Below, piece after piece: positions 437-62,276 of a stretch of 64,000 nucleotides of DNA. Under the pieces are notes generated by a model. It saw nothing but the letters and a program-made list of their open reading frames with translations, was not told where the DNA came from and did no database searches. Position 1 is the first letter of the stretch, and each line of letters opens with the position of its first letter. The translations under genes were made by a program, and so were the position numbers. The stretch lies in assembly GCA_902773005.1 (NCBI GenBank), contig CACYCS010000004.1:9378-73377 (forward strand), read 5' to 3'. This stretch comes from an uncultured Erysipelotrichaceae bacterium. GTDB taxonomy: Bacteria > Bacillota_I > Bacilli_A > RFN20 > CAG-826.

Positions 437-529
437 GCGTTTTACCATGATATTTGTAATCCGTGCCCTTAAAACAACCAAGTGGGACCCATTTTGAGGC
501 AAAATAAGGCTACGTTGTAATATGTGGTC

Positions 530-1276
530 GTGAAGAAATCCATCCTTTTTATTCTTTTCGCGGTAACCGTGTCTTCCATGACGGTCGGATGTAATCTCAC
601 AGCCGAAGCAAAGGACAGGCACCCCGAAACCCGTTTGGCGAAAGACGATGAGAAGCTCATCGATTTCTCAAAGGGCTGGTCAAAGGACTTCATGTTGGCG
701 AACGGTTATCGAAATGGCGACCCGTTTGGCTGCTACTGGTCTAAGGATGCCGCTAGCGTTAAGGATGGGAAGCTGGAGTTAAGCCTCTACGAGAAGGACG
801 GGAACTTCTATGGCGCGGAATACCGCTCCTACAAAAACGCCTTCCATTACGGGTTCTATGCAATCCGGATGAAAGCCGCGGATTGTCCCGGGGTCATCAG
901 TTCCTTCTTCACCTACACCAATCGCCCTGCATGGGATGAGATTGACATTGAGTTCCTTGGCAAAAACATGCGCCAAGTCCAATTCAATTACTACACGCAA
1001 GGCGTAGGTGGCCACGAAAAGCTCGTTGATCTAGGCTTCGACGCTTCCAAGGAATTCCATGAATATGGATTCCATTGGATCGAAGGCTCGATCGCGTGGT
1101 ATGTCGATGGAAAACGGGTGCACATCGCAGCCGAATCCATCCCGAGCAACTCCCAGCAGATCATGATGAACCTTTGGAATTGCAGGGGGCACGATTCCTG
1201 GAGCGGCAAGTTCGATCCGAGCAAGCTGCCCGTGAAATCGGAATACGAGTTCATCGCTTATTCCCCGGAAGCGTGA
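530..1276 (+). CDS. GH16 endo-1,3-1,4-beta-glucanase (lichenase-type), exported
   Basis: Catalytic WDEIDIEFLGK, QFNYY, LGFDAS.EFHEYGFHW; N-terminal signal or lipobox. GTG 530 preferred because TAATAT lies at 518-523; GTG 524 is the alternative. Confidence 0.9.
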   Translation: MKKSILFILFAVTVSSMTVGCNLTAEAKDRHPETRLAKDDEKLIDFSKGWSKDFMLANGYRNGDPFGCYWSKDAASVKDGKLELSLYEKDGNFYGAEYRSYKNAFHYGFYAIRMKAADCPGVISSFFTYTNRPAWDEIDIEFLGKNMRQVQFNYYTQGVGGHEKLVDLGFDASKEFHEYGFHWIEGSIAWYVDGKRVHIAAESIPSNSQQIMMNLWNCRGHDSWSGKFDPSKLPVKSEYEFIAYSPEA

Positions 1277-1321
1277 AGCGACGCGCCGAGGGAAAATACT
1301 TTTTCAGGAGGTCAAATTGAA

Positions 1322-3805
1322 ATGAAAAAGAAATCGCTTTTGCCGCTAGTAGCAAGCGCATTGTTGCTTGCCGCCTGCGGTGGTGGAAAAGTCGTTTATT
1401 CTAGTGTCGACCCTTTGGCTGGCGACAAGATCGGCGACTTCTCCGAAGGAAAGCCTGACGACATCTTTGCGTCCGACGGCTGGAGCAATGGCGCGAATTT
1501 CAACTGCGTCTGGAAAGAGGAAAACGTCACGTTCTCCGATAGCAAGATGCATCTTGCCATCAAAAACGAAGAGGCGAAGGATAACGACAAGACCTATCCT
1601 TATACCGCGGGCGAAGCAAGGACCCACAAGCTCTATGGCTATGGCGACTTCTCGGTCAGGATGAAACCGACTAGCATCGTCGGCACCGTCTCCACCTTCT
1701 TTGTCTACACCGGCGAATGGGATGTCGTGGATGGCCAAAAGCACAAGCACGACGAAATCGACATCGAGTTCCTCGGCAAAGACACCACCAAGGTCCAGTT
1801 CAACTATTTCGTCGGCGGCAAAGGCGGACATGAATACATGTACGACCTCGGATTCGACGCCTCCAAGGAATTCCATGATTATGGATTCCGCTGGGAGAAG
1901 GACACCATCACCTGGATCATCGACGGCAAGACCGCCTATCAGGTCAAGAAGGATGCCAAAAACCCAGAACTACCTTCCACCGCTGGCAGAATCATGACCA
2001 ACTACTGGCCCGCAGCCGAGGCTGGCTGGGCTGGCAAGTTCGAGGGCGCGACCGCGGATACCGTCGATTATGAATGGATCAAAACCTCCGCAACCGGCTC
2101 CTATTGCGATGGCGAGGAGCCTGCGCCTGAGCCCGTGGAGTTCGATTGGGCAAGCGTTGCCGAGACCGATCTCACCTTCTCGACCGGCGACACCGAGACC
2201 TATCACATCACCAAAGAAGATAAAGTGACCACCGTCACCTACGAGAAAGCCAAAGGCTGGGTTAACCTTGGTGCTGGCATCGCCGATGCCGCTAAGCCCA
2301 ATACCGCGGTCAACTTCACCTTGAAGAACAATAGCGCAGCCGCGACTAGCGTCCGCGTCGACGTCCAAGGCACCACCAAAGTCGGCAATTCCGATTGCCT
2401 TAATACCTCCGCCTATGCCAAAGGACATAGCGAGATGTACACCAACATGGAGTGGGGCGGCTCTGAATTCAAACTCGGCGGGAACGAAGAGCTCGCGGTC
2501 ACCGTCAACTACGATCCGACCGGCGAGAAAGGCCTGCCGAAGTCCCTCCTGTTCTATTTCGACTCCATGCAAGCGGACGAGAAAGTCCATGAAGGCGGCA
2601 GCGTCTCCATCAGCAAGGTCCGTTTCGCCAACCCGAGTGGCGAAGCGCCCGTTTACCCAGTTGATCCAGTCGTCTCCGAGCCGATCGTGAGCGAGCCGAC
2701 TGTGAGTGAGCCCCAAGAGTCCGCTGAGCCCCAGGAATACGTTCCGATGGAAGGCGCCCTCGATTTCACCTTCACCGCGACCGACCTTTACACCATCACC
2801 CCAGCCAACCAGGCCACAAAGTCACTTGACGTTGCCTATAGCAAAATATTGGGCAACACCTATGCGACCATCTCTAGCTCCGCCCCTGCGATTCCTAGCG
2901 CCGCGACCGAGTTCGGCGTGAGCCTCGTCAATAACGGAACCGCAGCAGCCAAGATCCGCGTCGACATCCAAGGCACCACCAGAGTCGGCAACACCGCCGC
3001 GATCAACACCTCTGCTTCGGCTGCTGGCCACACCGATGTCTGGACCGACTCCGAATGGGGTGGATCCTCCATCACCATTGCCCCGAAAGAAGAGGCGAGG
3101 TTCGTCGTGAGCTTCGATCAGACGACCGAAAGGGGTGCCGCTACCTGCGTCATCTTCTTCATCGACTCCTTCCAGGGCGACACCACTGAGCGTTCTGGCA
3201 ACATCACTCTCCGCGACTTCACCTTCAATGCCGCGCAGCCCGAAGTTCCTGAGCAATCCGTCGAGCCTGTGCAGTCCGTCGAGCCTGAGCAGTCCGCTGA
3301 GCCCCAGGGCTACGTTCCGATGGAAGGCGCCCTCGACTTCGAGTTCAACGGCAATCCCGCTTACACGGTTACTCCCTCTGGCGAGTCCTCTAAATCCTTC
3401 GATGTCTCTTATCTCAATTTAGCAGGCAACACCTACGCGAACATCTCTAGCTCTTCTCCTGCGATTCCCTCGACCGCAACCAAATTTGCCGTAAGCCTCA
3501 CCAATAACGGCGACTCCAACGCGAAGATCCGCGTCGACATCCAAGGCACCACCAGAGTCGGCAACACCGCCGCGATCAACACCTCTGCTTCGGCTGCGGG
3601 CCACACCGATGTCTGGACCGATTCCGAATGGGGCGGATCGTCGATCACGGTCATTCCTGGCGAAACCGCTAGGTTCGTCGTGAGCTTCGATCAGGCGACC
3701 GAGAGGGGTGCCGCTACCTGCGTCATCATCTTCATCGACTCCTTCCAGGGCGACACCACCGAGCGTTCTGGCAACATCAACCTCCGCGATTTCATCTTCG
3801 AATGA
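1322..3805 (+). CDS. GH16 beta-glucanase lipoprotein with three C-terminal repeat domains
   Basis: Lipobox LLAAC; HDEIDIEFLGKDTTKVQFNYF; P/E/S linkers; three related ~160-aa beta-rich domains; SD AGGAGG upstream. Confidence 0.9.
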   Translation: MKKKSLLPLVASALLLAACGGGKVVYSSVDPLAGDKIGDFSEGKPDDIFASDGWSNGANFNCVWKEENVTFSDSKMHLAIKNEEAKDNDKTYPYTAGEARTHKLYGYGDFSVRMKPTSIVGTVSTFFVYTGEWDVVDGQKHKHDEIDIEFLGKDTTKVQFNYFVGGKGGHEYMYDLGFDASKEFHDYGFRWEKDTITWIIDGKTAYQVKKDAKNPELPSTAGRIMTNYWPAAEAGWAGKFEGATADTVDYEWIKTSATGSYCDGEEPAPEPVEFDWASVAETDLTFSTGDTETYHITKEDKVTTVTYEKAKGWVNLGAGIADAAKPNTAVNFTLKNNSAAATSVRVDVQGTTKVGNSDCLNTSAYAKGHSEMYTNMEWGGSEFKLGGNEELAVTVNYDPTGEKGLPKSLLFYFDSMQADEKVHEGGSVSISKVRFANPSGEAPVYPVDPVVSEPIVSEPTVSEPQESAEPQEYVPMEGALDFTFTATDLYTITPANQATKSLDVAYSKILGNTYATISSSAPAIPSAATEFGVSLVNNGTAAAKIRVDIQGTTRVGNTAAINTSASAAGHTDVWTDSEWGGSSITIAPKEEARFVVSFDQTTERGAATCVIFFIDSFQGDTTERSGNITLRDFTFNAAQPEVPEQSVEPVQSVEPEQSAEPQGYVPMEGALDFEFNGNPAYTVTPSGESSKSFDVSYLNLAGNTYANISSSSPAIPSTATKFAVSLTNNGDSNAKIRVDIQGTTRVGNTAAINTSASAAGHTDVWTDSEWGGSSITVIPGETARFVVSFDQATERGAATCVIIFIDSFQGDTTERSGNINLRDFIFE
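2718..3802 (+). repeat. Intragenic tandem domain duplication (two ~510-bp copies, offset 573 bp)
   Basis: agtccgctgagccccagg...gttccgatggaaggcgccctcga starts at 2718 and 3291. Long identical stretches, e.g. aagatccgcgtcgacatccaaggcaccaccagagtcggcaacaccgccgcgatcaacacctctgcttcggctgc. Confidence 0.95.
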
Positions 3806-9336: not shown

Positions 9337-9840
9337 TTAGACTACGGCCTTTTTCCTGGCCCAGTAGATACGGCTTTCTACGTATTTGACAATCATGATG
9401 ATCAACGCGGCGAATTCGCATGCGATTGAGAAATAGAAGCCAGGGGCATAAGTGAGCCCTGCAAGGGGGATGCTGCTATTTGTTAGGGAGATAAATAGAG
9501 GGGACATGAACTCTAGAGCCATGCCAGCGACGAGCAATATCAAACCGATCATGAGCTGATGGGGAAGGTTTTTGCCTAGCATCGCGCTGATGAATGCAAG
9601 CACATAAAGCTGGATCATGATGATCAAGGGGATATTCGGCGAGAAATAGAACGAATAGGAGTCGATGGTCAAAGGGCCTCCGAAATAGACGCTGAATGAA
9701 GAGAATGGAACCAGTTTGTCGTCCATTGTCCACGCTCCCGCGATAGGGAGAAGGGCAAGCACGGCCCCAGCCATGATGAAAAACGCGGCGAGATAAACAA
9801 GCGCTCCGCGATTCTTTTCCTCTTTGATCCTGCTGGCCAT
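9337..9840 (-). CDS. Hypothetical 4-TM membrane protein
   Basis: 167-aa ORF with four hydrophobic segments; TATAAT shortly upstream. Confidence 0.75.
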   Translation of the reverse strand: MASRIKEEKNRGALVYLAAFFIMAGAVLALLPIAGAWTMDDKLVPFSSFSVYFGGPLTIDSYSFYFSPNIPLIIMIQLYVLAFISAMLGKNLPHQLMIGLILLVAGMALEFMSPLFISLTNSSIPLAGLTYAPGFYFSIACEFAALIIMIVKYVESRIYWARKKAVV

Positions 9841-14486: not shown

Positions 14487-15892
14487 TTTTTAGTCTCCCC
14501 CTTCAAAATCCTCTTCGGAATTTTGATCGTAACGGTGGTGCCTTCGCCAGCTTTGCTGGTGATTTGGACGTCCGCGTTCAAAAGCAATTTGAACCTATCG
14601 GACGCGTTTTTGATACCCTGGCTCTTCGTTTTGATCGAATTGACGTCAAAACCCACCCCGTTATCGATGATTTTCAATATGTATTCGTGCTCCATCTCCT
14701 CGGAGCTGATTTCAATATAGCCTCCTTCGCGACTTGTGATTTGGCTATAGCGGATCGCGTTTTCCACGAAAGGCTGAAGCGAAAGGGTAGGAACGTCGAA
14801 ATCATAGTTTTCGACGTTGAAGATTACGTTGGGCTTTCTTTCATACCCCAAACTCGCAAGTTCAAGGTAATAGGTGATGTTCTCTAGTTCCGTCGATAGC
14901 GGGACGAGATAGACGTCGCTTGCGACAACGTTGGCTCTGAGGTGCTTGGACAAAAGATCGATTGCCCTATCCCCTTCTTCTGGGCTCTTGCGATAGATTA
15001 CTTTGATGTGGTTGAGAACGTTGAAGAAGAAATGGGGGTTGATTTGCTCCCTCAGGATTTTCGTTTGCAGCGCCTCTAGGTCGGACTTATAGATTTCCGC
15101 CCTATTTGCCGATTTCGTGACGCGGATCGTGAAGACGGTATAAATGACAAGGAACATCAACCCAGCAGCAACGATATAACCAGATGCCAAGCCATAGGGA
15201 TAGGCGCGATAACTCGAAACGGTGAGAATGCCAATCGAGGTTTCCGACGCGACCAGAAGCGCGGCGATGATGAAGGAGATATAGAACGTAAGGTCGTCTT
15301 TCATGCGAATGGTTCCCGACATGAAAAGCGCGGTGAAGACGATTGCTGACGTCCACGCGGCTAGCCATATGACTATGTATTCCAATTTCCATATCGATAG
15401 GATGGCACCTACGATAACGGTGACGGTAAAAACGAAAAAGCCGCTTATCGTTATCCAGTTCCTCCTGAGCTCGGGCAAATAGTTCTGCAGGATATAACGG
15501 CTAAAGAAAACGCAAAACAGCCCATAGAAAAGGATGTTGAACATTCGGAATAAATCTAGCGCAAATTCGGAAGTGATCTTGTCGGAGAAATAAGATTTCG
15601 CTTCAGGAAGGGTGAGCAAGTAGAAAAGCAAAGAGAGCGCGACCATGAAGGTATTCCATGTCGCTGCTTTGTTGAAGAAATTGGCGGCGAACTCAAATAC
15701 GACATCGATTACGATAACGACGATGGCGATGGTCCAAATGGTATATGCGAAAGATAGCGGGGTTTCGCTTGCGTTATCGCTCAAAGCCAGGCGAATAAAG
15801 CAAAAGACGATAGCGGTAGCCACCGTTAGGATGCATAAAGTCGCCGTGATGAACGGCGGGATTCTCACTTTTTCTACTTTGGTTTCAGCCAC
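14483..15892 (-). CDS. LytS/YesM-type membrane sensor histidine kinase
   Basis: QINPHFFFNVLN, LQPFVENAIRY, DNGVGF; multiple TM. Probable GTG start at 15892 overlaps the macro-gene stop; the ORF extends to 15940. Confidence 0.88.
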   Translation of the reverse strand: MAETKVEKVRIPPFITATLCILTVATAIVFCFIRLALSDNASETPLSFAYTIWTIAIVVIVIDVVFEFAANFFNKAATWNTFMVALSLLFYLLTLPEAKSYFSDKITSEFALDLFRMFNILFYGLFCVFFSRYILQNYLPELRRNWITISGFFVFTVTVIVGAILSIWKLEYIVIWLAAWTSAIVFTALFMSGTIRMKDDLTFYISFIIAALLVASETSIGILTVSSYRAYPYGLASGYIVAAGLMFLVIYTVFTIRVTKSANRAEIYKSDLEALQTKILREQINPHFFFNVLNHIKVIYRKSPEEGDRAIDLLSKHLRANVVASDVYLVPLSTELENITYYLELASLGYERKPNVIFNVENYDFDVPTLSLQPFVENAIRYSQITSREGGYIEISSEEMEHEYILKIIDNGVGFDVNSIKTKSQGIKNASDRFKLLLNADVQITSKAGEGTTVTIKIPKRILKGETKK

Positions 15893-16379
15893 GGATGGTC
15901 TCCATCGCTTCATCATAAGCCTCGCGAACATCGAAACCAAAACAATAGACAGTGATGTCCAAATCAGGTGCCTTGCTTAACTCTTGAAGCGCGATCGGCG
16001 CGGCTTTCTGCACAGGATAGCCATAGATCCCAGTAGAAATGGAGGGGACGGCAATTGTTTTAATGCCATTCTCGCGCGCAACGCGGATAATGCTTCGATA
16101 TACCTCGCGAAGCTTTGCCTCGGGCTCACGCTCCAAATAGTAGTTTGGCCCGACGGCGTGAATAATGTATTTGGTGTGAAGGTTGAAGCCGGGGGTGATT
16201 CTTGCGTCCCCCGTTGGGCATGGGCGGACTTTGACGCAGGCCTCGAGCAATTCCTCAAAGCCGGCACCCTCGTAGATTGCTCCACAAACTCCGCCGCCAG
16301 GCGCCAATGCCGAATTTGCCGCGTTTACAAGCGCGTCGCCTTCAAATTCTGTTATGTCCCCACTAACAATTTTTATCAT
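15885..16379 (-). CDS. Macro domain protein (ADP-ribose binding/hydrolase, YmdB-like)
   Basis: GDIT, ALVNAAN, GGGVCGAIY, IIHAVGP, PSISTGIYGYP. Confidence 0.93.
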   Translation of the reverse strand: MIKIVSGDITEFEGDALVNAANSALAPGGGVCGAIYEGAGFEELLEACVKVRPCPTGDARITPGFNLHTKYIIHAVGPNYYLEREPEAKLREVYRSIIRVARENGIKTIAVPSISTGIYGYPVQKAAPIALQELSKAPDLDITVYCFGFDVREAYDEAMETIRG

Positions 16380-16482: not shown

Positions 16483-17922
16483 TCAGTTATCGGACCTTGC
16501 GAAGCCGTTCTTCATGTTGCAACTGGCCGTGAAGAGGACGTTAGAGAGGCAAGCGTCTGTCAGCTTTTTGGTTTTCGCCGCGATTTGAGCGTTTGCGTGG
16601 TTTAGCAGGCTGAGATCGCTGCTCTTCGAGTATTCGGTGTCGGTCTCTTTGGTAAGGTGAAGCGCCTCGGATTGCAGAGCCTCTTGATAACGTTCCACAT
16701 GGATGATGCATGTGCCGAAATGCGCATCGGTCAACGCGCCGATGATGCGGTTTGCCCAATAGAAGTTGTCCGTTGATGGAGTGAGGGTCGTGTTGCCGAA
16801 ATAGGCGGGGATGGTATCGACATTCGCGTAAATAGGTACGAAGGCATTGAATGGATTGCTGCCAAAGGAGAACCATTCGATCGCCGCGATTTCGGAGGGG
16901 ACGTATGGCCTGATTTGGTTCAAATGCACGAAGCTTGTGCGCGAGATGCCAATGGGGCGGAACTGTCCGCGCTCCTTTTCGTCGCCAAAGCGCGCATAGG
17001 GATCATACGGGGTTCCTTGATAATGCGAGGATAGCAGATACTTTACGTCTTCGACGGTGATTTTCCTTTCGGGGACGAGGCTCCATGGAATGTCGTCGGA
17101 AAGAGGGGTGTAGTCTGCATTTGGCCCGTCCCATTTAAAGGTGCGTGGGTTGAGGTAGCGCGCGATATACCAAGCCCTCGGGGTATTGTAGACGTGATCC
17201 GAATCGGAGTGGCTTCCAAAAGCCAAACGCGGATTGAATTTCCCGTCGAGGTTCAAATCGAGGTGGTTGCTCTCCACGAATTCTCTGAGGTCTTTGGAAC
17301 ACATATATTCTTGTTGCGCGCCGTATGCATCGTCCCAATCGAATTCATCGAGCCCGAATTGGTTGGGCATGACGACGTAACGATCGTCTGGAACGCGTCT
17401 AGCAATGAAATGGTGCCCACCGATGGTTTCAACCCACCAGATCTCGTCCTTATCGGAGAAGGCGATTCCGTTGGACTCATACGTGCCATATTTTTCAAGC
17501 AGTTCGCCTAGGCGGATTACGCCTTCTCGTGCGCTATGAATATAAGGCAAGGTGATGACGACAAGGTCCTCCTCACCTATGCCGCCCTTTTTAAGCAATG
17601 GGTCCGCTGCTAGGACGCGCTCATTGGTTGTGATTGTTTCGGTTGCGGTCATGGCAACGTTTTCGGCGTTGATTCCATCCGCTGCCCAAATGCCAACAAT
17701 TTGATTCACGCTTGGCATGGAAGTATAGCGAAGCGGGTTGTCCGGGAGGTCGATTTCAATCTTCCCGATTTTAGATTTGTATTTGCGGGGCTGCTTTTCA
17801 GGAAGAACGACGACTAGCTTCTTTTCGTGGAACTGTCCGGTAGGGCAGTCGTCGTTTCTTGCAGTCATCGTTGAGCCATCATAGGAGGCTTTCTTGCCTA
17901 CGAGGATTGTTGTGCATGCCAT
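16483..17922 (-). CDS. C69 family dipeptidase (PepD-like)
   Basis: N-terminal ACTTILVGKKASYDGSTMTARNDD, YNTPRAW, LSSHYQGTPYDPY. Confidence 0.93.
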   Translation of the reverse strand: MACTTILVGKKASYDGSTMTARNDDCPTGQFHEKKLVVVLPEKQPRKYKSKIGKIEIDLPDNPLRYTSMPSVNQIVGIWAADGINAENVAMTATETITTNERVLAADPLLKKGGIGEEDLVVITLPYIHSAREGVIRLGELLEKYGTYESNGIAFSDKDEIWWVETIGGHHFIARRVPDDRYVVMPNQFGLDEFDWDDAYGAQQEYMCSKDLREFVESNHLDLNLDGKFNPRLAFGSHSDSDHVYNTPRAWYIARYLNPRTFKWDGPNADYTPLSDDIPWSLVPERKITVEDVKYLLSSHYQGTPYDPYARFGDEKERGQFRPIGISRTSFVHLNQIRPYVPSEIAAIEWFSFGSNPFNAFVPIYANVDTIPAYFGNTTLTPSTDNFYWANRIIGALTDAHFGTCIIHVERYQEALQSEALHLTKETDTEYSKSSDLSLLNHANAQIAAKTKKLTDACLSNVLFTASCNMKNGFARSDN

Positions 17923-17994
17923 AATTCAATATTCCTTTCAGGCGGGATTCCGCCGAGCGGGATAAGTATAGTCCAAATGAATGGGGCATAGCGA

Positions 17995-18042
17995 AATGAC
18001 ACAATCCATATCGATCGCGCATCGGCGGCAAATCAAGTATGA
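17995..18042 (+). repeat. 48-bp direct repeat, left copy
   Basis: aatgacacaatccatatcgatcgcgcatcggcggcaaatcaagtatga, identical to 20011-20058. Confidence 0.97.
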
Positions 18043-18185
18043 CACCTGAATTTGGGATTCACCCCCCAAATTGTGGTGTTAAAACCCAAAAACGGGTATT
18101 AAGGATAGAAGCGTTTGCTTAGTGTGGCACATCTGTGCCCCCTTCTTTGGTTTAATAAGATATAAGCGTCCAAGGAGAAACTATT

Positions 18186-19874
18186 ATGGGCAGAATCAGC
18201 GAATCATTGAAAAAGAATATCAACATCATCCGTGAGGTCGACCGTAGAATACGGGCCAATGAGCCGGTCGACATGACGCTGGCTTTCGAACTTGAAAATG
18301 CTTTTCGCAAGATCAATTATTTTACCAATTACTGCGTCGTCAATGCCCCTGACAGCATGGAATCGCTTGGACGTTTCGTGAGCAGCGGCGAACTGGAAAA
18401 CTTCAATTTGCCAGAGAACCTCGAAGAAAAACTTGCCCAATGGGAGGAAGGACTAGACGAAGCAGAGGCCGAGTATGTCTTTAATCGCCTGGCGACCCAA
18501 GACGCCATTCCGCCTTTTGTTCCTGACCTTCACGAACCCAATTCCACCAACTACATCAATTACGTCAAAGAAGTCATCGATGGCGTCGCCTCGTTCTCTA
18601 GCCGTGCGCACCTTGGCATTAGCGAGGAAGGCTTCAAGAAAATCATGGTCGACATCCAGCAGGATTTCATCAAAACATCGCTGGAACAAGACTATATCTA
18701 TGATGAAAATAACGAAGTGGAAGCCTACGCTTTTGAATTGGCGGAAAGGCCTTTCCAAGCTCCGCTTAGAGACCACCGCGACGAACTTGACCTTGCCGAC
18801 CAACGGGAATTCATGACCGACGCGAATTTAATGCTACAAGAACGTAACGAGGCCGCTGGACATCCAAACCCTCTCGCCGCATTGCAGCATCATCAGCGCA
18901 TGGCAAAATTTTTGTTGCCCATCCAAGAATGCGATTCAAAACCCAAAGACCTCGCCGAAGTCGTCCAGAAATCCGTCATGGACTTCCAACGTGTGGCTCG
19001 TTCTGCCGCAAATAGCGGTCGAAGAGACTTCCCCACGACGGCAGAATTCCTATCTCTGGCGCGAGACCGCGTGGAAGCGGCAGTGCTTGATCGCTGCGTC
19101 GAACTTGGCGATGACCCCAACAGTGTCTTCCTCAAACAATTCTTGAAAAACCCGGTCGAAGCAATGACCAAATATTACGAGAATGCGCCGTATAGCCGTG
19201 AGGCTGAAGAAAATACCCGCATCCAGCAAAACCTTGATTCCATGCGGTCACAGCAAAGGAGTTACAATGATTTCCGCCAAGGCAAAGTCGACCGTTATGA
19301 TGCCTTTATGCAGGATCGCCGCAACCGCGCCGACCGCTTCATCCGCGAATCGATTCCGAGTTTCAACCCCGCGACCTTCAAAAGCCAATACAGAGGCGGC
19401 ATCTTTGAACGCGCCCTTCATCGCACTTCTCCCGAATGGCAAAACGTCTCTGCCTTCATGGAGAATTGGTCCACCCAGGGCCCAGAAAATGGTAACCTCG
19501 ACAAAGCTAGCGACCTTGCCACGAAGTACCTGCAGCACAAATTCCCTGGCGTCGACCCCAAAGACATCACCGTCGAGATGTGCGAATCCTTGGACGCCAC
19601 CGGGCGTAGCCGTTCTTTGTTCTGCCTCACCGTCATCGATTCCGTCGATGCTGCTAAGGCCGAGACCATGAACGAGCGCATCGCGGAGAGCAACCGCAAG
19701 ATAAGAGAGCTCCGCGCCTTAGTCGATCGCCCCGCCGCCAACTTCCAACAGCAGCTCGCTAACGACCTCGCTAACGAAGAAGTTGCCGAAAACAACAACG
19801 AGATTCAAAACAACAACGAAATCCATAACGAAAACGAGATCCAAAATAACGATATTGAGGCCAACATCGACTAG
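18186..19874 (+). CDS. Hypothetical 562-aa soluble protein with Asn-rich tail
   Basis: SD AAGGAG, long ORF, no TM or signal peptide, no recognisable motif. Confidence 0.85.
   Translation: MGRISESLKKNINIIREVDRRIRANEPVDMTLAFELENAFRKINYFTNYCVVNAPDSMESLGRFVSSGELENFNLPENLEEKLAQWEEGLDEAEAEYVFNRLATQDAIPPFVPDLHEPNSTNYINYVKEVIDGVASFSSRAHLGISEEGFKKIMVDIQQDFIKTSLEQDYIYDENNEVEAYAFELAERPFQAPLRDHRDELDLADQREFMTDANLMLQERNEAAGHPNPLAALQHHQRMAKFLLPIQECDSKPKDLAEVVQKSVMDFQRVARSAANSGRRDFPTTAEFLSLARDRVEAAVLDRCVELGDDPNSVFLKQFLKNPVEAMTKYYENAPYSREAEENTRIQQNLDSMRSQQRSYNDFRQGKVDRYDAFMQDRRNRADRFIRESIPSFNPATFKSQYRGGIFERALHRTSPEWQNVSAFMENWSTQGPENGNLDKASDLATKYLQHKFPGVDPKDITVEMCESLDATGRSRSLFCLTVIDSVDAAKAETMNERIAESNRKIRELRALVDRPAANFQQQLANDLANEEVAENNNEIQNNNEIHNENEIQNNDIEANID
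19791..19859 (+). repeat. Degenerate 18-bp tandem repeat encoding NNNEIQ-like units
   Basis: aacaacaacgagattcaa / aacaacaacgaaatccat / aacgaaaacgagatccaa / aataacgatattgag. Confidence 0.8.
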
Positions 19875-19896
19875 TTATCGTTAAGACTCACGTGCT

Positions 19897-19938
19897 ACCA
19901 AAAAGGGAAGGAATGCAAAGACGCCTTCCTTTTTTGGT
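19897..19938 (+). terminator. Rho-independent terminator
   Basis: accaaaaagggaagg / ccttccttttttggt. Confidence 0.8.
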
Positions 19939-20010
19939 TAACAATGTTAATAGCCTTGTTCGAAAACTACCTGCAGCCCAAGCTTTGTGGTGTTAAATCC
20001 CAAAAGCGGG

Positions 20011-20058
20011 AATGACACAATCCATATCGATCGCGCATCGGCGGCAAATCAAGTATGA
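20011..20058 (+). repeat. 48-bp direct repeat, right copy (contains ruvX promoter region)
   Basis: Identical to 17995-18042; continues into TATGAT at 20054-20059. Confidence 0.97.
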
Positions 20059-20066
20059 TATGCTCC

Positions 20067-20501
20067 ATGAAAAAGTATCTGCTCGCACTGGATTTAGGTA
20101 AAGGGTCGCTCGGATTAGCGCTATCGCGCAGTGGAGAATTCATTGCGCCGCTTAAGGAAATAAGGTTCCCTGCCACCCACTATGAATACGCCATTGCGCA
20201 CCTTCGGGAACTTCTGATGATAGAGAAGGTTGAAACGTTTGTTTTGGGCCTGCCTCTTTTTCCTTCGGGAGACGAGTGCGAAATGACGCCGATCGTAAAG
20301 CGATTTGCCACTCTTTTGGAGCAGAACTTCCCAAATATCGAAATCGTTTTCCAAGACGAGAGGAATTCTACCGTCGAAGCAGCGGCGATGTTGCGCGAAG
20401 CGGGCAAAAACGCGAAGAAAGCAAAAGGAAGCATTGATTCGGCCGCAGCCTACATCATTTTGAAGAGATATTTATCTTCGATTGGTCAATACGAGGACTA
20501 A
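20067..20501 (+). CDS. ruvX: RuvX/YqgF family nuclease (pre-16S rRNA nuclease / Holliday-junction resolvase-like)
   Basis: YLLALDLG...GLALS, VLGLP, QDERNST, IDSAAAYIILKRYL. Confidence 0.9.
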   Translation: MKKYLLALDLGKGSLGLALSRSGEFIAPLKEIRFPATHYEYAIAHLRELLMIEKVETFVLGLPLFPSGDECEMTPIVKRFATLLEQNFPNIEIVFQDERNSTVEAAAMLREAGKNAKKAKGSIDSAAAYIILKRYLSSIGQYED

Positions 20502-20692: not shown

Positions 20693-22081
20693 ATGTCCAA
20701 ACAAAATGGCAAGAAGAAAAGTTTCTCCACCAAGGTGCTTCTAGTTGGAATTATTTTCCTGCTTCTTTCCTTGGTGTGGCTTAATCTCACTGCCGCTGTC
20801 AAGATGGCACCGTTTGATGTCGCGACCAGTGGTGGAGAGCACTGGGGCGTCGCTGCTGGAACCTTCTGGTTCTGGAGAATGTTCGCCGCCGATCCTGGCT
20901 GGAGTGGAACCGGCCAAATGCATTGGGGCAATGAGGATATTTGGTCCCTTCTCATCGTTACCTTCTGCTACGTTATTTCGATTCTGTTCGTTCTTGGCGT
21001 GGTCTTTGCGATCATCGGCAAGAAGGTCAAGAAGAACCTTCCCGCCCTTCTCGGCTTGTTGCTTGCTGGCTGGTACCTCGCCTACATCTGCGCGATGATC
21101 ATCGTTCCTCTCAACCGTGGCTGGATCTGGCGCAGTGCTTACTTTGAATGGATGGTCGTCGCCGTTCTCGCGATCATCTCCTTCCTCTCTTTCGCTCTCG
21201 TCCCCGTTCTGAACCTCTTGAACGCCGCCGCTGATGCCGTCAAGAAGGAAGAACCTCAGGAAGAAGAGAAGAAAAAAGAAGAAGAACCCGTTGGCCTCAC
21301 CGAAGACGAGGTCCGCGAAATCGTCCGCGACGAGCTTGGCAAGCAAGAGAAAGCCGAAGAAGAGCCCGCCGAGGAAGAGCCTGAAGAAGGTATGACCGAA
21401 GACCAGGTCCGCGAAATCGTCCGCGAAGAGCTCTCTCACTACGAAGTGGTTACTGAAGATGAGCCCGAGGAAGAAAAGCCCGCCGAAGACGAGAATCTCG
21501 CTAAAGAAGAGGTTGTCGAGGAAGAGCCCGCTGCTGAAGAGCCTGTCAAAGAAGAACCCGCCGAAGAAGAACCCGCCGAGGAAGCCGAAGAAGAGGCTGA
21601 CGAGGAAGAGGGCGACGACGAAGAAGGCGAAGAAGAGGGCGACGAAGCTGAGGCCGAAGGTGAAGCTGGACCGGACGATCCGTTCGCCAAGCTCCGCACC
21701 AAGAGGCGTCGCGCTTCCTTCGAGACCAAACTCAAGAAGAGCGAAGAAGATCTCCGCCACAAATACTATGATCTTCGCGACTACATCAAGTCCTATGGCG
21801 TGAATCCTCGCATCTCGATCCCAGGCGTCACCTTCTCTGCCCACCGCGAGAAATTTGTGTTCCTTACCATCAACGGCAAGCACATCAAAGCCTGCTTCGC
21901 CCTCAATCCTGATGATTACGCGAACACCCCGATCCCTGTCGATCGCAACGAAGCGAAGAAGTATGAGGATCTCCCGCTCGCCTTCAAGGTGAAGTCGGAT
22001 CTCTCCTTCCGCCGCGCTTGCAAGCTCGTCGACGACCTCATGGCCGCCAAGGGCATCGGTAAGCCGGAAGAGAAGAAGTAA
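20693..22081 (+). CDS. Membrane protein with acidic linker and C-terminal globular domain
   Basis: SD AAGGAGG; four TM, a ~150-aa Glu-rich linker with a duplicated TED(E/Q)VREIVR(D/E)EL motif, then a ~120-aa basic domain. Confidence 0.85.
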   Translation: MSKQNGKKKSFSTKVLLVGIIFLLLSLVWLNLTAAVKMAPFDVATSGGEHWGVAAGTFWFWRMFAADPGWSGTGQMHWGNEDIWSLLIVTFCYVISILFVLGVVFAIIGKKVKKNLPALLGLLLAGWYLAYICAMIIVPLNRGWIWRSAYFEWMVVAVLAIISFLSFALVPVLNLLNAAADAVKKEEPQEEEKKKEEEPVGLTEDEVREIVRDELGKQEKAEEEPAEEEPEEGMTEDQVREIVREELSHYEVVTEDEPEEEKPAEDENLAKEEVVEEEPAAEEPVKEEPAEEEPAEEAEEEADEEEGDDEEGEEEGDEAEAEGEAGPDDPFAKLRTKRRRASFETKLKKSEEDLRHKYYDLRDYIKSYGVNPRISIPGVTFSAHREKFVFLTINGKHIKACFALNPDDYANTPIPVDRNEAKKYEDLPLAFKVKSDLSFRRACKLVDDLMAAKGIGKPEEKK

Positions 22082-22086
22082 TTCTC

Positions 22087-22145
22087 CCAAAGCAAAAAAG
22101 ACGCAGGAAGTTGGAACCAATCCAACGACCTGCGTTTTTGCTTTG
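22087..22145 (+). terminator. Long terminator hairpin
   Basis: caaagcaaaaaagacgcagg..gttgga / tccaac..cctgcgtttttgctttg. Confidence 0.75.
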
Positions 22146-22339
22146 CGGCTCACTGCGTCAAAGAAGCAATAGATAATAGGGTAACGATGGATTTTCGGGA
22201 ATGGGTTAGTACACCCCCAACTTTTTCGAAGGACTTCTTACAATGAATTTCAAATGCGATAAAGCAAAAATATGCGCGGTTCTCCATTCTCGAATTTGCC
22301 GCTTTGTGAGACAATCTACACATGAGGTGAATAAACAAC

Positions 22340-27895: not shown

Positions 27896-28807
27896 TCATT
27901 TCTTCATATAGGCTGAGATATCAAGCCATTCGCCCATCTGGAAGTCGCATTTATCGTCGTCCAGGATGAGCGTCCCCTTCGCGGGAGTAAACGTCATTTC
28001 CGAGAAATATATCTTTCCATCGATATCGTAGAAATCGCACCGAACAAACGGAAAATCCCTGCAAAGGTCCTCTGCAATAGCAATCATTTCGTCGAAATTC
28101 GCAGGCCTTTCAGGTTTGATGTCCGCTTTTTTCCAGCCATTGAATTGACTGCCGTCGAAGTCGGTCCAGTCGGTATATAACTCGGTGTAACGGATGTCTT
28201 TGCCACGCCCAGTGACGACATAGAGATTCCTTGCTTTGCCGTTATAGACGTGAAGCTTATACTCGGTTGGGAGCGCATCTAGGCCACCAACGAACTGCTC
28301 GATGATGATCTGCGGTTTGATCTTGCTGTAATGGCGCTCCATCGTGAACTTGCCATAGTCCGTTGAGAGCCATTTGTTGAACTTCTTTGCCGCTTCTTCT
28401 TTGTTGAGCGTCGATTTGTCGCGGACGAGGATATTGAATCCGCTCGCGTGACTGCACTTCATCACGAAATGTCCGGGCAACTTATCGAAGTCGATGTCCT
28501 CGAATCTATCGTAAACGCCATAGATGGGAATAAGGGTATTCTCGTAGCCTTTTTCCTTCACGTATTCGCGCACTCCAACACGTCCTGCGCATTTGCTCAC
28601 CAAGTCCCATTTCGGATACACGTATAGCCTCAAATACTGTAGCTTCTCCGTGTAGCGCGTCGGGTTTTTGAGGTTGCAGGGGTGGTGGGTGATGTATTTG
28701 TATTGCAGCTTCACGTAGAGGGTGGGGCTAATTGCCTTCACGATGCCGCGAAAAGGAACGGCAATCATCCGCTTCAGTTTGTTTTCTTTGAGATTGGGAT
28801 TACCCAT
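27896..28807 (-). CDS. TupA-like ATP-grasp protein (polysaccharide modification)
   Basis: NLKNPTRYTEKLQYL, FVMKCSHASG, PQIIIEQF, EYK, FPFVRCDFY, IYFSEMTFTP. Confidence 0.85.
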   Translation of the reverse strand: MGNPNLKENKLKRMIAVPFRGIVKAISPTLYVKLQYKYITHHPCNLKNPTRYTEKLQYLRLYVYPKWDLVSKCAGRVGVREYVKEKGYENTLIPIYGVYDRFEDIDFDKLPGHFVMKCSHASGFNILVRDKSTLNKEEAAKKFNKWLSTDYGKFTMERHYSKIKPQIIIEQFVGGLDALPTEYKLHVYNGKARNLYVVTGRGKDIRYTELYTDWTDFDGSQFNGWKKADIKPERPANFDEMIAIAEDLCRDFPFVRCDFYDIDGKIYFSEMTFTPAKGTLILDDDKCDFQMGEWLDISAYMKK

Positions 28808-30359
28808 TGTTCTGCTGCGCCTCCTTTCGGTGACTTGGCAAGAAGGAAGACACGAGCTTTTCCTTCAAGAGCAATAGACCGATGACGTAGATGATGGCGT
28901 CCCCTGCGACACAGATAAGAAGATCAAGAATATAGCCGATCCAAAGGGTATCGCCGCTAAAGGGAAGCGCCTTAAGAATCACCGGGCTAAGGAAGAACGT
29001 CAAAATACCAATTACGAGACCCATGGCAATGATTTTGAGGTTATTCCAATTGAATATGGCACTTCTTGAGTATTGCCAGGATTTCCAAATCAAGAAAGCC
29101 ACAAGGACGACGTCCGTTGATCCCGTCGCGATGGCTACGCCTACGGCAGGGTGCTCGGGGAAGGCGAATATCCCAAGAAGCAACGACAACGTCACATTGC
29201 AAACTACCCCGATGAGCATCGCGTAGAGGTAGATTTTCTCGCGCTTCATCGGGAGCAAGATTTCGGTATAGATGTTGTCGCAGATGGAGTAGGTGAGCAT
29301 CATGATCGAAAGAATCGGAAGGACCAGGTTTGCGTCTTTGTAGGTGGCCGTGAAGTCAGAACCGGAAATCAATGACGTCACCGGCGTCGCCAAAGTCGAC
29401 ATGGTCGCGATCGCCGGAACCGCGATGAAGAAAGTGATGTTCAGCGAATAGTTGATTAGATTCTGGAAGAAGCGCTTGTCCGCCTTCTCATAGTAATAGG
29501 ATGCCCTAGGCATGAACACCATATATAAAGAGGTGATTAAGGTAATCACGATATCGATGCCTTTCACGCCGACGGAATAGGCGCCAACGGAGGCTTTTGT
29601 TGGGTCAATAAAGCCGAGCAGGAACTCATCGGTTTGGTTATAAAGGGTCAGCGAGAAACTGATCAAAGCCATCGTGACCAGCGTTTTGAGGAGTGGCCTG
29701 AAGTTATATGGTGCGGTCTTTTTAAAACTCACGTACCGCGGCAACAATATGGAATTTGACACCGCGGTGATGATCGTTCCCGAAATCGCGATCAACGCAT
29801 AGATATAGAGGTAATCCTCGTGATAGCTGCTGTCTTTGACGAATAGGAACGTCATCATTGCAGCGAACGCCGTGGCGAGGATCGTCCTGACCGTGATGTA
29901 GAAATGCTTCTCCAAAGCAATGTAGACCCACTCAAACGCGAAAGCGCCGACCAAGAAATTGATGGAAAGCAGGAAGATGATTTCTTTTGCCGTATACAAA
30001 TCAGGAACCGAAAACACCGCGGCGCACATAAGCGCAAAGCTAATGACGGTCATGATGGCTTGCAACAAGAAGAATTCCTGCACCTTATGGCTAAATGCCA
30101 CGGGGTCATCCTTGACCTTCGCGCATTCCCTGATCGCAAGATTAGGAATCGAGATTTTGGATAGAATCACGAAGTAATAGACAAAGGTATTCGCCCAGGT
30201 ATATAGGCCGAATGCCTGGTCAGAAAGGACCCTTGCCACATATGGGAAGGTGATGAACGAAAGGATCGTCATCGTCAAGGTGCGTATCAAATTGATGACG
30301 ACGTTCGCCCTAACCGTATAGGCGAGGTTCGTATTTTGGGTCTTCGCGGTTTCGGCCAT
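28800..30359 (-). CDS. Polysaccharide flippase (Wzx/MOP family)
   Basis: ITFPYVARVL, YFVILSKISIP, LYNQTD..LG, VGAYSVG; about 14 TM. Confidence 0.88.
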   Translation of the reverse strand: MAETAKTQNTNLAYTVRANVVINLIRTLTMTILSFITFPYVARVLSDQAFGLYTWANTFVYYFVILSKISIPNLAIRECAKVKDDPVAFSHKVQEFFLLQAIMTVISFALMCAAVFSVPDLYTAKEIIFLLSINFLVGAFAFEWVYIALEKHFYITVRTILATAFAAMMTFLFVKDSSYHEDYLYIYALIAISGTIITAVSNSILLPRYVSFKKTAPYNFRPLLKTLVTMALISFSLTLYNQTDEFLLGFIDPTKASVGAYSVGVKGIDIVITLITSLYMVFMPRASYYYEKADKRFFQNLINYSLNITFFIAVPAIATMSTLATPVTSLISGSDFTATYKDANLVLPILSIMMLTYSICDNIYTEILLPMKREKIYLYAMLIGVVCNVTLSLLLGIFAFPEHPAVGVAIATGSTDVVLVAFLIWKSWQYSRSAIFNWNNLKIIAMGLVIGILTFFLSPVILKALPFSGDTLWIGYILDLLICVAGDAIIYVIGLLLLKEKLVSSFLPSHRKEAQQNNG

Positions 30360-56309: not shown

Positions 56310-56810
56310 ATGGAAGTCGCGAAGACTCCGATCATCGTCACCATTGCAACCATTGCTGGTTCTGCCCTCGTTTTCGTTTTGGCCCGCGTCGCTCAGCGCA
56401 TCTATCGAAGCGAGGATTTTGTCCTGTATGCCAGAAAGATGGTCCTGCTAGAGAAGGATGTTCTCAAGCTTCAAATCTTCTTCGATAACGATACGAAAAA
56501 GGAAAAGGAATTCCGTGCGCTTTGCCTATATGGAGTAAGCGGCAAATCCTTCACCAAGATCACCGAGGTCAAAGACCTTCCAATCGCCTCCGACCATTCT
56601 TCGGCTTTCATCGAGTCCCGCCACGGATCATACGATTTCAAAGTTCCTCCATATACGAAATTTCAGGCAGTCGTGGATCTTCGATTGCCCGAGGAGATGA
56701 ACTACGATTCCTATAAGCTTGGATGCGTGTCCGAAAAAGGGACGCTTCTTCTAGCGGATTTCGATATTCGAAGCGATGCCAATCAAGAGATCGTCTTCAA
56801 GCGTTCCTAG
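56310..56810 (+). CDS. Hypothetical membrane-anchored protein
   Basis: N-terminal TM then a beta-rich domain. Confidence 0.65.
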   Translation: MEVAKTPIIVTIATIAGSALVFVLARVAQRIYRSEDFVLYARKMVLLEKDVLKLQIFFDNDTKKEKEFRALCLYGVSGKSFTKITEVKDLPIASDHSSAFIESRHGSYDFKVPPYTKFQAVVDLRLPEEMNYDSYKLGCVSEKGTLLLADFDIRSDANQEIVFKRS

Positions 56811-57538
56811 TCTTCTTTTCGTTCGTCACTGCCATCACCATAAGTTTCGCGGAATCTTGCCGCGAAGGATGGCTTTTCGCCATTCATAGTCAAATGGCTG
56901 ACATCCCCAAAGGTGGAAATCCTCCAGCTTGCGATGCCTTTCTCACGCTCCTCGGTTGAGAGAATGGTTACTCCAGTAGGCTGACAAACGAACCCGTGCC
57001 ATAGCACCATGGGACTGCAATTGATGAGGTGCGAAAGCAGTACGCACATGACGCCAAAATGGCAAAAGAGGACAAGCGTGTCTCTATTTTCGCGGACTAC
57101 CGCATAATTCCGCCCATTTCTTTGGTACCCATTTTCAAGCAGCAATTGATCAAGTCCGTTGATCCTCTCATCGTATAGCGGCTTCAGGTCCGGGCTGTTC
57201 CTGAAGATGTCGTTCTCCATCCAGGTATCGATGGAATAGAATCGCGGATCTTTCGTCCATTCGCTCGGTAGCCAATCCCATGTCACATCCGATTGATCCT
57301 CGTGTATCGCGGTGGAATCAAATTCCCTAAGCCAAGCGAGGGTAGTGGGGGTTAGGCTTGTTTTGGATAAGCCGATTTTCGCTGTAAGGGCTGCGCGCCC
57401 CAAAGGAGAGGCGTAAGCGCGGTCGATCTTCTCGCCTTTTAGACGTTCGGCAAGAAGAGTTGCTTCCTTGATCCCTCTCTCTGTCAGGGAATCGTGTTCG
57501 TAATCTGGGTCGCCATGGCGAATGATGATCAGTCTCAT
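56807..57538 (-). CDS. Histidine phosphatase superfamily protein
   Basis: IIRHGDPDY, SPLGRA..TA, LREF, FCHFG. Confidence 0.9.
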   Translation of the reverse strand: MRLIIIRHGDPDYEHDSLTERGIKEATLLAERLKGEKIDRAYASPLGRAALTAKIGLSKTSLTPTTLAWLREFDSTAIHEDQSDVTWDWLPSEWTKDPRFYSIDTWMENDIFRNSPDLKPLYDERINGLDQLLLENGYQRNGRNYAVVRENRDTLVLFCHFGVMCVLLSHLINCSPMVLWHGFVCQPTGVTILSTEEREKGIASWRISTFGDVSHLTMNGEKPSFAARFRETYGDGSDERKED

Positions 57539-59905: not shown

Positions 59906-60619
59906 ATGTTGCCTGAACAATCTTTGAACATCTATTGCGATGAATCCTGCCATCTGATTGGCGATAGCTCCAGAGTCATGGGGCTAGGCGCGATCGGATG
60001 CCTTGAATCCCAAAAAGAAGCGGTGGTGGATATGATTCACCGCATCAAGGACTATTACGGATATAGCTTCGCTGAAATCAAATGGTCCCAGATCACCACG
60101 AACCAAGTTCCGATGATCAAAACGTTAATCGACTACTTTTTCAAGTGCCCCTATCTTTCCTTTCGCGCGATCATCATCCCCAATAAGCGCGAAGTCGCGC
60201 AGGACAAAACGGTCGTGCAGTTCGACGAGTGGTATTACAAGATGTACTACCAGCTGCTTATCGTGATGCTTGACCGCTACCCCCGGGGCAACAACATCTT
60301 CATCGACCGAAAGGACACCCAAGGCAAAGCCAAGATCAAAAAGCTCTTCGAGATTCTTTCGCGAGCAACCAATGGCGAGGAGGCGGTGGATGGCATCGTT
60401 GAAATCGATTCCCATTGCTCCGACTTGCTTCAGGTAAGCGACCTATTTACCGGGATGCTCGTTTTCCATAAGCGCGGGCTATCCAAACGAGGGAATCCCG
60501 CGAAGGTCGCGGTGCTTAACCATTTGCTTACCAAGGTGTCGGTGGATTACAGCACGCCGCCAGACGAGAAAAAGTTTAATTTGTTCTATTGGGAGGGTGC
60601 ATCTCATGTTCGAGGATGA
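59906..60619 (+). CDS. DUF3800-family protein (RNase H-like acidic motifs)
   Basis: NIYCDESCHL, EIKW, YYKMYY, IFIDRKD, LLQVSDL (QxxD), KFNLFYW. Confidence 0.82.
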   Translation: MLPEQSLNIYCDESCHLIGDSSRVMGLGAIGCLESQKEAVVDMIHRIKDYYGYSFAEIKWSQITTNQVPMIKTLIDYFFKCPYLSFRAIIIPNKREVAQDKTVVQFDEWYYKMYYQLLIVMLDRYPRGNNIFIDRKDTQGKAKIKKLFEILSRATNGEEAVDGIVEIDSHCSDLLQVSDLFTGMLVFHKRGLSKRGNPAKVAVLNHLLTKVSVDYSTPPDEKKFNLFYWEGASHVRG

Positions 60620-62110: not shown

Positions 62111-62128
62111 ATCATTCAGCCATTCTTC

Positions 62129-62266
62129 AAAGTATGAAGGAGTATGAAAGAATCATAAAAGTATGAAAGAGTATGAAAGAATCCTAAAAGTATGAAGAAG
62201 TATGAAAGAACTTGAAAAGTATGAAGGAGTATGAAAAAATTTTAAAAGTATGAAGGAGTATGAAAG
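62129..62266 (+). repeat. Tandem array of five 29-bp units with ten AGTATGAA boxes
   Basis: AGTATGAA starts at 62131, 62141, 62160, 62170, 62189, 62199, 62218, 62228, 62247 and 62257. Confidence 0.97.
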
Positions 62267-62276
62267 GAACGACGAT

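Follow-up and report, generated by a model that had tools for sequence, protein, structure and literature searches.

A one-gene cassette between exact 48-bp direct repeats in the pepD-ruvX promoter region of an uncultured Erysipelotrichaceae bacterium: a candidate remnant of an integrative element

The window analyzed here is a stretch of 64,000 nucleotides (nt) of DNA from an uncultured Erysipelotrichaceae bacterium (GenBank assembly GCA_902773005.1, contig CACYCS010000004.1), with positions counted from its first letter. Within it, the divergently oriented genes pepD and ruvX are separated by a cassette of about 2 kb, which carries a single long open reading frame (ORF), referred to as the cargo gene, and which is bounded on both sides by the same 48-bp sequence. 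The corresponding region of a relative reads as an empty site, and we tentatively favor an origin in which the two 48-bp repeats are the left and right attachment (att) sites, attL and attR, of an integrated circle, in the manner of the cis-mobilizable elements (CIMEs) of Firmicutes. The main features of the locus, from left to right, are as follows.

16483..17922, minus strand: pepD, a C69 family dipeptidase gene and the left neighbor, transcribed away from the cassette (Pfam PF03577, E=2e-174; NCBIfam NF033678, E=3.6e-194)
17923..17994, no strand assigned: single-copy segment of 72 nt from the pepD start to the left repeat, carrying the pepD ribosome-binding region (from the sequence)
17995..18042, plus strand: candidate attL core, the left one of the two exact 48-bp direct repeats; the next base is C, which gives the hexamer TATGAC
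18186..19874, plus strand: cargo gene for an acidic protein of 562 amino acids (aa) from an uncharacterized, sparse family, with a C-terminal tail rich in N, D and E (ORF; AAGGAG at 18172-18177)
20011..20058, plus strand: candidate attR core, the right one of the two exact 48-bp direct repeats; the next base is T, which gives TATGAT at 20054-20059
20067..20501, plus strand: ruvX, encoding a YqgF-type putative Holliday junction resolvase, start revised (Pfam PF03652, E=9.9e-30; TIGR00250; N-termini of relatives)

A first-pass annotation, made from the letters alone, had described exact 48-bp repeats lying 2016 bp apart, and the repeat search bears this out. Positions 17995-18042 and 20011-20058 agree at 48 of 48 positions, with starts 2016 nt apart, the unit being composed of the 48-bp repeat and an interior of 1968 nt. 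With up to three mismatches allowed, the 48-mer has two matches in the window, compared with none expected in 100 shuffles; statistics here and below are scores against shuffled sequence, and the repeat and motif searches cover the whole window. Other exact repeats of at least 30 nt are found only inside the GH16 genes, at 2951-3759. The borders of the 48-mers are sharp, in that the 60-nt flanks of the two copies show no more similarity than shuffled sequence, whether on the left (514/1000 score as high) or on the right (549/1000), and the segment 17923..17994 is unrelated on alignment to the sequence left of the right copy. A longer duplication that has since decayed is ruled out, the flanks beyond the 48 bp being unrelated.

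The ends of the interior carry further structure, which comprises the following features.

18042..18079, no strand assigned: imperfect palindrome abutting the left repeat, with 15-nt arms (13 paired) and an 8-nt spacer (DNA fold -12.8 kcal/mol, z -2.9, 2/200 shuffles as stable)
18043..18068, minus strand: degenerate copy, in inverted orientation, of the end motif, at the far left end of the insert (local alignment 17/21, one gap)
18071..18099, plus strand: end motif B, the left subterminal copy (29 nt, 90%; alignment score 42, 0/2000 shuffles as high)
18126..18149, plus strand: small GC hairpin with a T-rich run after it, located upstream of the ribosome-binding site of the cargo gene (terminator-like match)
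19897..19938, no strand assigned: terminator-like hairpin between an A-run and a T-run, possibly bidirectional (DNA fold -12.0 kcal/mol, z -4.8, 0/200 shuffles as stable)
19985..20013, plus strand: end motif B', adjoining the right repeat copy, with which it shares 3 nt (repeat family and alignment)

The window contains exactly two occurrences of the short end motif that had been noted at first, at 18071 and 19985, and the motif can be extended to 26-29 nt (29 nt at 90% identity; the best local alignment, 24/26, is equaled by 0/2000 shuffles). The left copy starts 28 nt past the left 48-mer, whereas the right copy directly abuts the right 48-mer, and the order differs by side, the repeat preceding the motif on the left and following it on the right. 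At its very ends the insert has an imperfect terminal inverted repeat (17/21 with one gap and a perfect core of 9 nt), the score of which is reached by 9/2000 shuffles when longer stretches are compared and by 9/5000 when the terminal 26 nt are. No counterpart of the palindrome at 18042-18079 exists at the right end of the insert, which folds no better than shuffles (z -0.05). Repeated end motifs are as expected of a discrete element, and the observations support this. The two end motifs differ at ~10% of positions whereas the 48-mers are identical; given one origin and equal decay, the chance of 48/48 identity would be about 0.6% (0.9^48), and the 48-mers therefore look younger than the motifs, or else the motifs are degenerate binding sites.

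The structured ends bear on a possible origin by transposition, in which a non-autonomous element would have been moved in trans by an enzyme cutting with a 48-nt stagger, gap repair then leaving a very long target-site duplication. The imperfect terminal inverted repeat (17/21, 9-nt core, 9/2000 shuffles) and the extra subterminal motif on the left fit such an origin, arrangements of inverted repeats with subterminal motifs being found at some transposon ends. The inverted repeat is weak, however, no further copy of the end motif lies in the 64 kb, and no transposase or Cas1-like gene was found in the window. Moreover, a 48-bp duplication exceeds that of every transposon family known to us, and overall we regard transposition as very improbable. 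The long target duplication proposed as one option by the first-pass annotation has no support beyond the repeat itself. Target-site duplications made by transposons usually measure from a few to ~15 bp. A DDE transposon, of the kind of a miniature inverted-repeat transposable element with cargo, was considered and is a poor fit, 48 bp being far too long a duplication. DDE-type integrative elements are described as making 8-bp repeats (PMC5704250).

That the 2-kb unit is an insertion/deletion difference is indicated by a relative whose RuvX, P0063, is 85% identical and has 191 aa, including an N-terminal extension of 47 residues that corresponds to read-through of upstream DNA. Residues 1-18 of P0063 match the plus-strand translation across the antisense pepD start (the 17923..17994 segment; score 55), and residues 41-70 match the translation of the repeat end, the 8-nt linker and ruvX (score 128). 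P0063 therefore spans from antisense pepD into ruvX, making pepD and ruvX direct divergent neighbors in that genome. Both ends of the 48-mer are conserved in the relative at the peptide level, its middle is not, and the intergenic region covers the entire reconstructed empty site without a scar. By codon count the two start codons are ~112 nt apart there, versus the 128 nt (72+48+8) predicted here after excision. The comparison of translated sequences thus indicates that the arrangement in the relative is the empty site. It had been suggested from the sequence that excision would regenerate a pepD/ruvX intergenic region and that relatives be searched for the empty allele; one such allele is represented by P0063, and an insertion-type polymorphism is supported.

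In a further relative, RuvX P0065 and PepD P0185 are probably encoded on one contig, both being listed with a longest contig of 13302 nt. The named RuvX and PepD relatives are annotated as 'Bacilli bacterium' and 'Candidatus Enterosoma sp.'. A scan of genome contigs for PepD gave 81 matched stretches, of which 40 loci were confirmed, the best at 67% identity; in none of these 40 loci, all from species other than that of the window, are ruvX, the cargo gene or other neighbors from the window found near pepD (tblastn, E<=1e-5), and none contains the end motif. A cargo homolog with 36% identity, P0004, is listed on a contig of 14,736 nt, and a RuvX relative with 77% identity, P0066, on one of 14,737 nt. 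If the two contigs are versions of one, another species would have a diverged cargo gene close to ruvX, an indication of a shared integration site.

An artefact of assembly, in which a separate 2-kb circle or the sequence of another strain was threaded into the chromosome via the shared 48-mer, would also present itself as an insertion. The layout of chromosome, repeat, loop, repeat and chromosome is what a loop in a de Bruijn graph yields, and in other data sets the species-level representatives of PepD and RuvX are on short contigs of 1772 and 1537 nt. However, a 48-bp repeat is shorter than usual sequencing reads, which therefore span it; the cargo gene is present in other samples; and any free circle with these 48 bp in common with the chromosome would be the same element in its excised form. 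We hold an artefact to be hardly credible.

The cargo gene is the sole long ORF of the 1968-nt interior, leaving non-coding ends of 143 nt and 136 nt. Its description at first pass, as a single orphan gene with its own Shine-Dalgarno (SD) site and terminator, is upheld: the 562-aa ORF is preceded by AAGGAG, 8 nt before its ATG, and is followed by the hairpin with z -4.8. The ORF has no match in Pfam, NCBIfam, PHROG or PADLOC, a profile built from 20 cargo sequences gives no match to PDB sequences at E<=1, and the ESM Atlas yields no usable match for either the whole protein or residues 240-500. An exhaustive HMMER search finds homologs in 58 representative clusters at E<=1e-3, 24 at 1e-10 and 7 at 1e-30 (a word-indexed search finds 5 clusters), compared with 286 of 315 scored candidates at E<=1e-20 for RuvX; judged by these searches, the cargo family is thus sparse compared with the neighboring genes. 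The alignment of the 20 sequences has 13 invariant columns, mostly in the C-terminal half, and the cargo is therefore a real, constrained protein. It is hydrophilic, with an isoelectric point (pI) of 4.78 (4.6-5.1 for 12 homologs), and its N/D/E-rich C-terminal tail is encoded by 18-nt repeats. A hidden recombinase was considered as its identity and judged unlikely, the protein and its 12 homologs being acidic (pI 4.6-5.1). The conserved residues of the cargo are out of what we take to be the order of those in tyrosine recombinases.

With respect to its distribution, the nearest cargo sequence is P0001, which is 98% identical, comes only from Logan and represents the species cluster, with 21 member sequences. 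The nearest full-length homolog outside the species is 45% identical, whereas RuvX and PepD relatives reach 84-85%; a 49-aa fragment, P0015, is 85% identical to the cargo N-terminus. At 90% identity the clusters of the cargo, PepD and RuvX have 21, 17 and 9 member sequences, respectively. These data are relevant to the possibility that the cargo gene is an old resident of the locus which the relative with 85% RuvX identity has lost, the repeat having arisen by local duplication or gene conversion and having been kept identical as upstream regulatory sequence. Such a history is consistent with the host-like composition of the gene, with a cargo cluster as well populated as those of PepD and RuvX, and with the P0015 fragment as a second lineage with the gene. 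On the other hand, the level of 45% for the next full-length homolog is out of keeping with 84-85% for the neighbor genes, the repeat borders are sharp with no decayed similarity past them, the differing order of the motifs on the two sides is not a product of conversion, and the intergenic region of the relative spans the reconstructed empty site without a scar. Ancient residence with loss in the relative therefore appears to us rather unlikely.

The explanation that we favor, if short of calling it probable, is that a circle of ~2 kb integrated by conservative recombination across 48 bp of identity, such that the repeats represent attL and attR, the recombinase being absent or acting in trans, as in CIMEs. 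In this proposal, circular DNA of ~2.0 kb would have carried the single cargo gene together with 48 bp that duplicate the sequence immediately upstream of ruvX; conservative recombination would have joined the 48-mer of the circle to its identical counterpart in the chromosome, between pepD and ruvX, leaving one 48-mer on each side, as attL and attR. With one 48-mer per side, both pepD and ruvX therefore keep their upstream sequence. The 26-29-nt motifs and the palindrome may be binding sites of the recombinase or of accessory proteins, i.e. the arms of a former attP. In the circular form the order would be motif, 48-mer, inverted motif and motif, with repeated sites on both sides of a segment of identity, as in attachment regions. 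Because the identity is long, the enzyme would most likely have been a tyrosine recombinase. The element could then be a remnant whose decay has spared only its att sites and a single cargo gene, or else a minimal cassette mobilized by a recombinase whose gene lies elsewhere. What we infer from the arrangement is the circular intermediate, a crossover within the 48 bp and the role of the motifs; integration of a circle is backed by the exact and sharply bordered repeat, the empty site, the structured ends, the sparse cargo family and the published features of att sites and CIMEs.

Several results weigh against an att-flanked circle. No integrase, transposase, relaxase or Cas1 domain was detected with Pfam among the 57 ORFs of at least 90 aa in the window, the first pass having noted the lack of a transposase or integrase between the repeats, and 13 of the 57 lack any Pfam match; the non-coding ends of 143 nt and 136 nt leave no room for an integrase remnant. 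Neither the cassette DNA nor the protein has a match in phage or plasmid collections, tblastn of the cargo included, and no further copy of the end motif is present elsewhere in the window. Compared with its own reverse complement, the 48-mer has no significant dyad (76/1000 shuffles score as high), and no inverted-repeat core with a spacer of 6-8 nt is evident. The repeat lies in an intergenic promoter region and not at a gene end or a tRNA gene. The composition of the cargo gene is host-like (GC 0.51; codon usage rank 40 of 57 genes), with nothing to mark it as foreign, and the cluster sizes suggest that the gene is common within the species rather than rare. A further point concerns P0001, which is listed on a Logan contig of 18,644 nt. 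Logan contigs are described as non-branching paths of a k=31 graph, with all 31-mers distinct within an accession (PMC12424806), and a k=31 break-point check of the window isolates the cargo on a ~2-kb piece bounded by the two exact 48-mers. If the 18,644-nt contig carries P0001, the 48-mers would therefore not both be exact in that sample; we treat this as a weak point, and one that depends on the meaning of the 'longest_contig' column. One central substitution would suffice to break the exactness of the 48-mer, which is not improbable at ~2% strain divergence.

No tRNA gene is present in the window, and Rfam assigns no family over 17800-20200, where a snoRNA match is at chance level (E=0.69). 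A literature search gave no report linking ruvX with integrated elements, direct repeats and an integrase, and one on long target duplications and promoter duplication gave nothing relevant by title or abstract.

Insertion without a dedicated recombinase would be in keeping with the lack of such an enzyme in the window. A circle bearing the 48 bp could have integrated by a RecA-dependent single crossover of the Campbell type, or a template switch during replication or repair could have copied ~2 kb from elsewhere and resumed 48 bp behind the point of departure, so that a local duplication would flank the insertion. The GC and codon usage, being host-like, are consistent with a source within the same genome or one related to it, and the 7-mer ATGACAC (17996, 18039 and 20012) could act as microhomology. 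However, the direct 26-29-nt motif, its inverted copy and the palindrome at the ends are left unexplained, a circle bearing the 48-mer presupposes an earlier excision from the same kind of site, and 48 bp is a short substrate for RecA recombination. We consider insertion by such general routes unlikely. ATGACAC is found at the start of each 48-mer (17996 and 20012) and at the junction of the left 48-mer with the insert (18039), with 5 occurrences in the whole window; it may represent microhomology or a half-site. This 7-mer as the true crossover was also considered; it needs a prior 43-nt tandem duplication in the target, and was judged unlikely because the intergenic region of the relative is shorter, not longer, than the single-copy reconstruction.

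There is also a more far-reaching reading. The cassette may be a minimal, promoter-carrying integrative unit, made up of one gene and an attachment region of ~130 nt in which the 48-mer is bracketed by inverted copies of the 26-nt motif, shuttled among RF39-like Bacilli by a recombinase acting in trans; or the 48 bp may be a true target duplication made by an integrase with a 48-nt stagger. This pair of possibilities we regard as quite improbable. Were the minimal cassette real, it would amount to an integron-like economy of cassettes without the integron platform, with a divergent promoter being targeted and rebuilt on both sides.

The ORF finder places the start of ruvX at 20055, inside the repeat, whereas the relatives (P0065-P0072) begin at residues encoded from the ATG at 20067, which on this comparison is most likely the start. 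With a start at 20067, the repeat ends 8 nt before the start codon and therefore contains no coding sequence. No SD site precedes this ATG, and the hexamer TATGAT ends 7 nt before it. Such a configuration has parallels in the window, where a match to AGGAGG of at least 5/6 at the usual spacing precedes only 16 of the 56 genes surveyed, and where several genes without an SD site have TATAAT 7-11 nt before the ATG (e.g. 9337-9840, 28800-30359 and 56807-57538, all on the minus strand), suggesting that leaderless mRNAs may be frequent in the organism. The TATGAT of ruvX fits the leaderless pattern, and its transcript may be leaderless. The right repeat copy supplies the 48 nt upstream of ruvX, and TATGAT is complete at the right copy only. 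The first-pass annotation had placed a -10 box at the end of the repeat; the hexamers TATGAT (right) and TATGAC (left) are as it described, and the consensus promoter scan lists no promoter there. The scan lists none at TATGAT because no recognizable -35 hexamer is present, and TATGAT is plausible as a candidate -10 box of the ruvX promoter.

If the repeats are indeed att sites, the cassette is one more small att-flanked islet, of a class that recent surveys find very common, the value of which is mainly descriptive, and the region upstream of ruvX becomes an integration site in poorly known, uncultured gut Bacilli. The element would then sit in a divergent promoter without silencing either neighbor, apparently by duplicating the sequence between the core promoters. 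The cassette also provides a genomic setting for an uncharacterized, sparse protein family (58 representative clusters), and its end motif is usable as a search query; were cassettes bounded by the motif to occur at further promoters or to carry different cargo, a cassette system with a recombinase in trans would be indicated.

Other features of the window are recorded here in their own right. One gene away from pepD, 15885-16379 (minus strand) encodes a stand-alone macro-domain protein (Pfam E=3.8e-37), which PADLOC matches weakly to DarG (E=2.7e-5). To the right of ruvX, 20693-22081 (plus strand) is a 462-aa ORF with a strong ribosome-binding site, a weak N-terminal match to DUF6688 and a long E/P-rich repeat region; a 470-aa antisense ORF at 20741-22153 (minus strand) overlaps it almost fully, and purine skew favors the plus strand. 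Two tandem GH16 genes occupy 524-3805, the second of which has internal repeats of 132-300 nt with a spacing of 573 nt, 75-93% identical and with exact stretches of up to 74 nt. At 59906-61190, two adjacent genes match the PADLOC candidate defense pair PDC-M04A (E=6.8e-65) and PDC-M04B (E=1e-15); a DUF3800 domain is also present in the first gene. At 62124-63329, a tandem repeat of 29 nt (4.9 copies, 87% matches) extends into the beginning of an ORF for a P-loop ATPase; this ORF has a low GC content of 0.41, ranks 3 of 57 as a codon usage outlier and has weak matches to anti-phage ATPases; it may be a foreign islet. The window also has a pcrA-ligA-gatCAB arrangement, which fits Bacillota.

Comparison with known systems helps to place the cassette. 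Like the gene cassettes of integrons, it is a single-gene unit without a recombinase that would move as a circle by a recombinase in trans. However, it has its own ribosome-binding site and terminator, its right end lacks an attC-type fold (z -0.05), and neither intI nor attI is present in the window; the borders of integron cassettes share few bases, versus 48 bp here. The identity of an integron cassette is ruled out on the grounds of the fold and of the lack of an integrase in the window.

Elements that depend on Xer, i.e. integrative mobile elements exploiting Xer (IMEX) and pdif modules, and pseudo-staphylococcal cassette chromosome (pseudo-SCC) elements resemble the cassette in being without a recombinase of their own and in being bounded by sites for one encoded elsewhere. 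The dif sites consist of two inverted 11-nt arms around a 6-nt spacer. The 48-mer, in contrast, has no significant 11-6-11 dyad (76/1000 shuffles as high), the spacer of the palindrome at 18042-18079 is 8 nt, and the locus is a promoter, not a dimer-resolution site or the 3' end of rlmH. Promoter-targeting DDE elements of the TnGBS/ISLre2 type insert just upstream of promoters, such that the downstream gene stays expressed, which is a likeness; yet they have a DDE transposase gene of their own, their inverted repeats are clear and their duplications short, whereas the cassette has no transposase and a repeat of 48 bp. With integrative and mobilizable elements (IMEs) as well as genomic islets that employ a tyrosine integrase, the cassette shares a long identical att core that would restore the target, and motifs beside the core that may be similar in role to arm-type sites; it differs from them in lacking an integrase gene and in having one gene in all.

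The closest comparison is with the CIMEs of Firmicutes, which are decayed IMEs or integrative and conjugative elements (ICEs); they are described as having lost the genes for integration and transfer while keeping attL and attR (PMC5704250, PMC6323972). According to the same literature, the att repeats of tyrosine recombinases measure 8-60 bp, the target gene is kept intact by one of the repeats, and integration at the 5' end of genes is rarer but known (PMC5704250). CIMEs bearing cargo are given as 1.2-13 kb in size and as apparently highly prevalent in a survey whose method missed stand-alone ones (PMC7563491). Two defining features of CIMEs, namely identical flanking direct repeats and the absence of mobility genes, are both found here. 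A CIME would further have att sites that a cognate integrase recombines, either alone or once the element has accreted with an ICE or IME. The 48-bp repeats, as candidate att sites, are within the published 8-60 bp; the unit contains cargo only, with no genes for an integrase, a relaxase, a coupling protein or a type IV secretion system; and its 2.0 kb is within the 1.2-13 kb range, with the neighboring target gene apparently left intact. The differences are that the cassette is solitary, the 64 kb containing no ICE or IME in tandem with it; that it is in a promoter/5' region, whereas most described CIME sites are at the 3' ends of genes or in tRNA genes; that a related full-length element or integrase is not known for it, its descent from an ICE or IME being putative; and that its host belongs to uncultured Bacilli, which we read as RF39-like, rather than to Streptococcus. 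The 'unrecognised mechanism' proposed at first pass is not needed, since CIMEs flanked by att sites are, on these accounts, an established class (PMC5704250, PMC7563491). What sets the cassette apart from the members of this class is that it is minimal in size, stands alone and is located within a divergent promoter.

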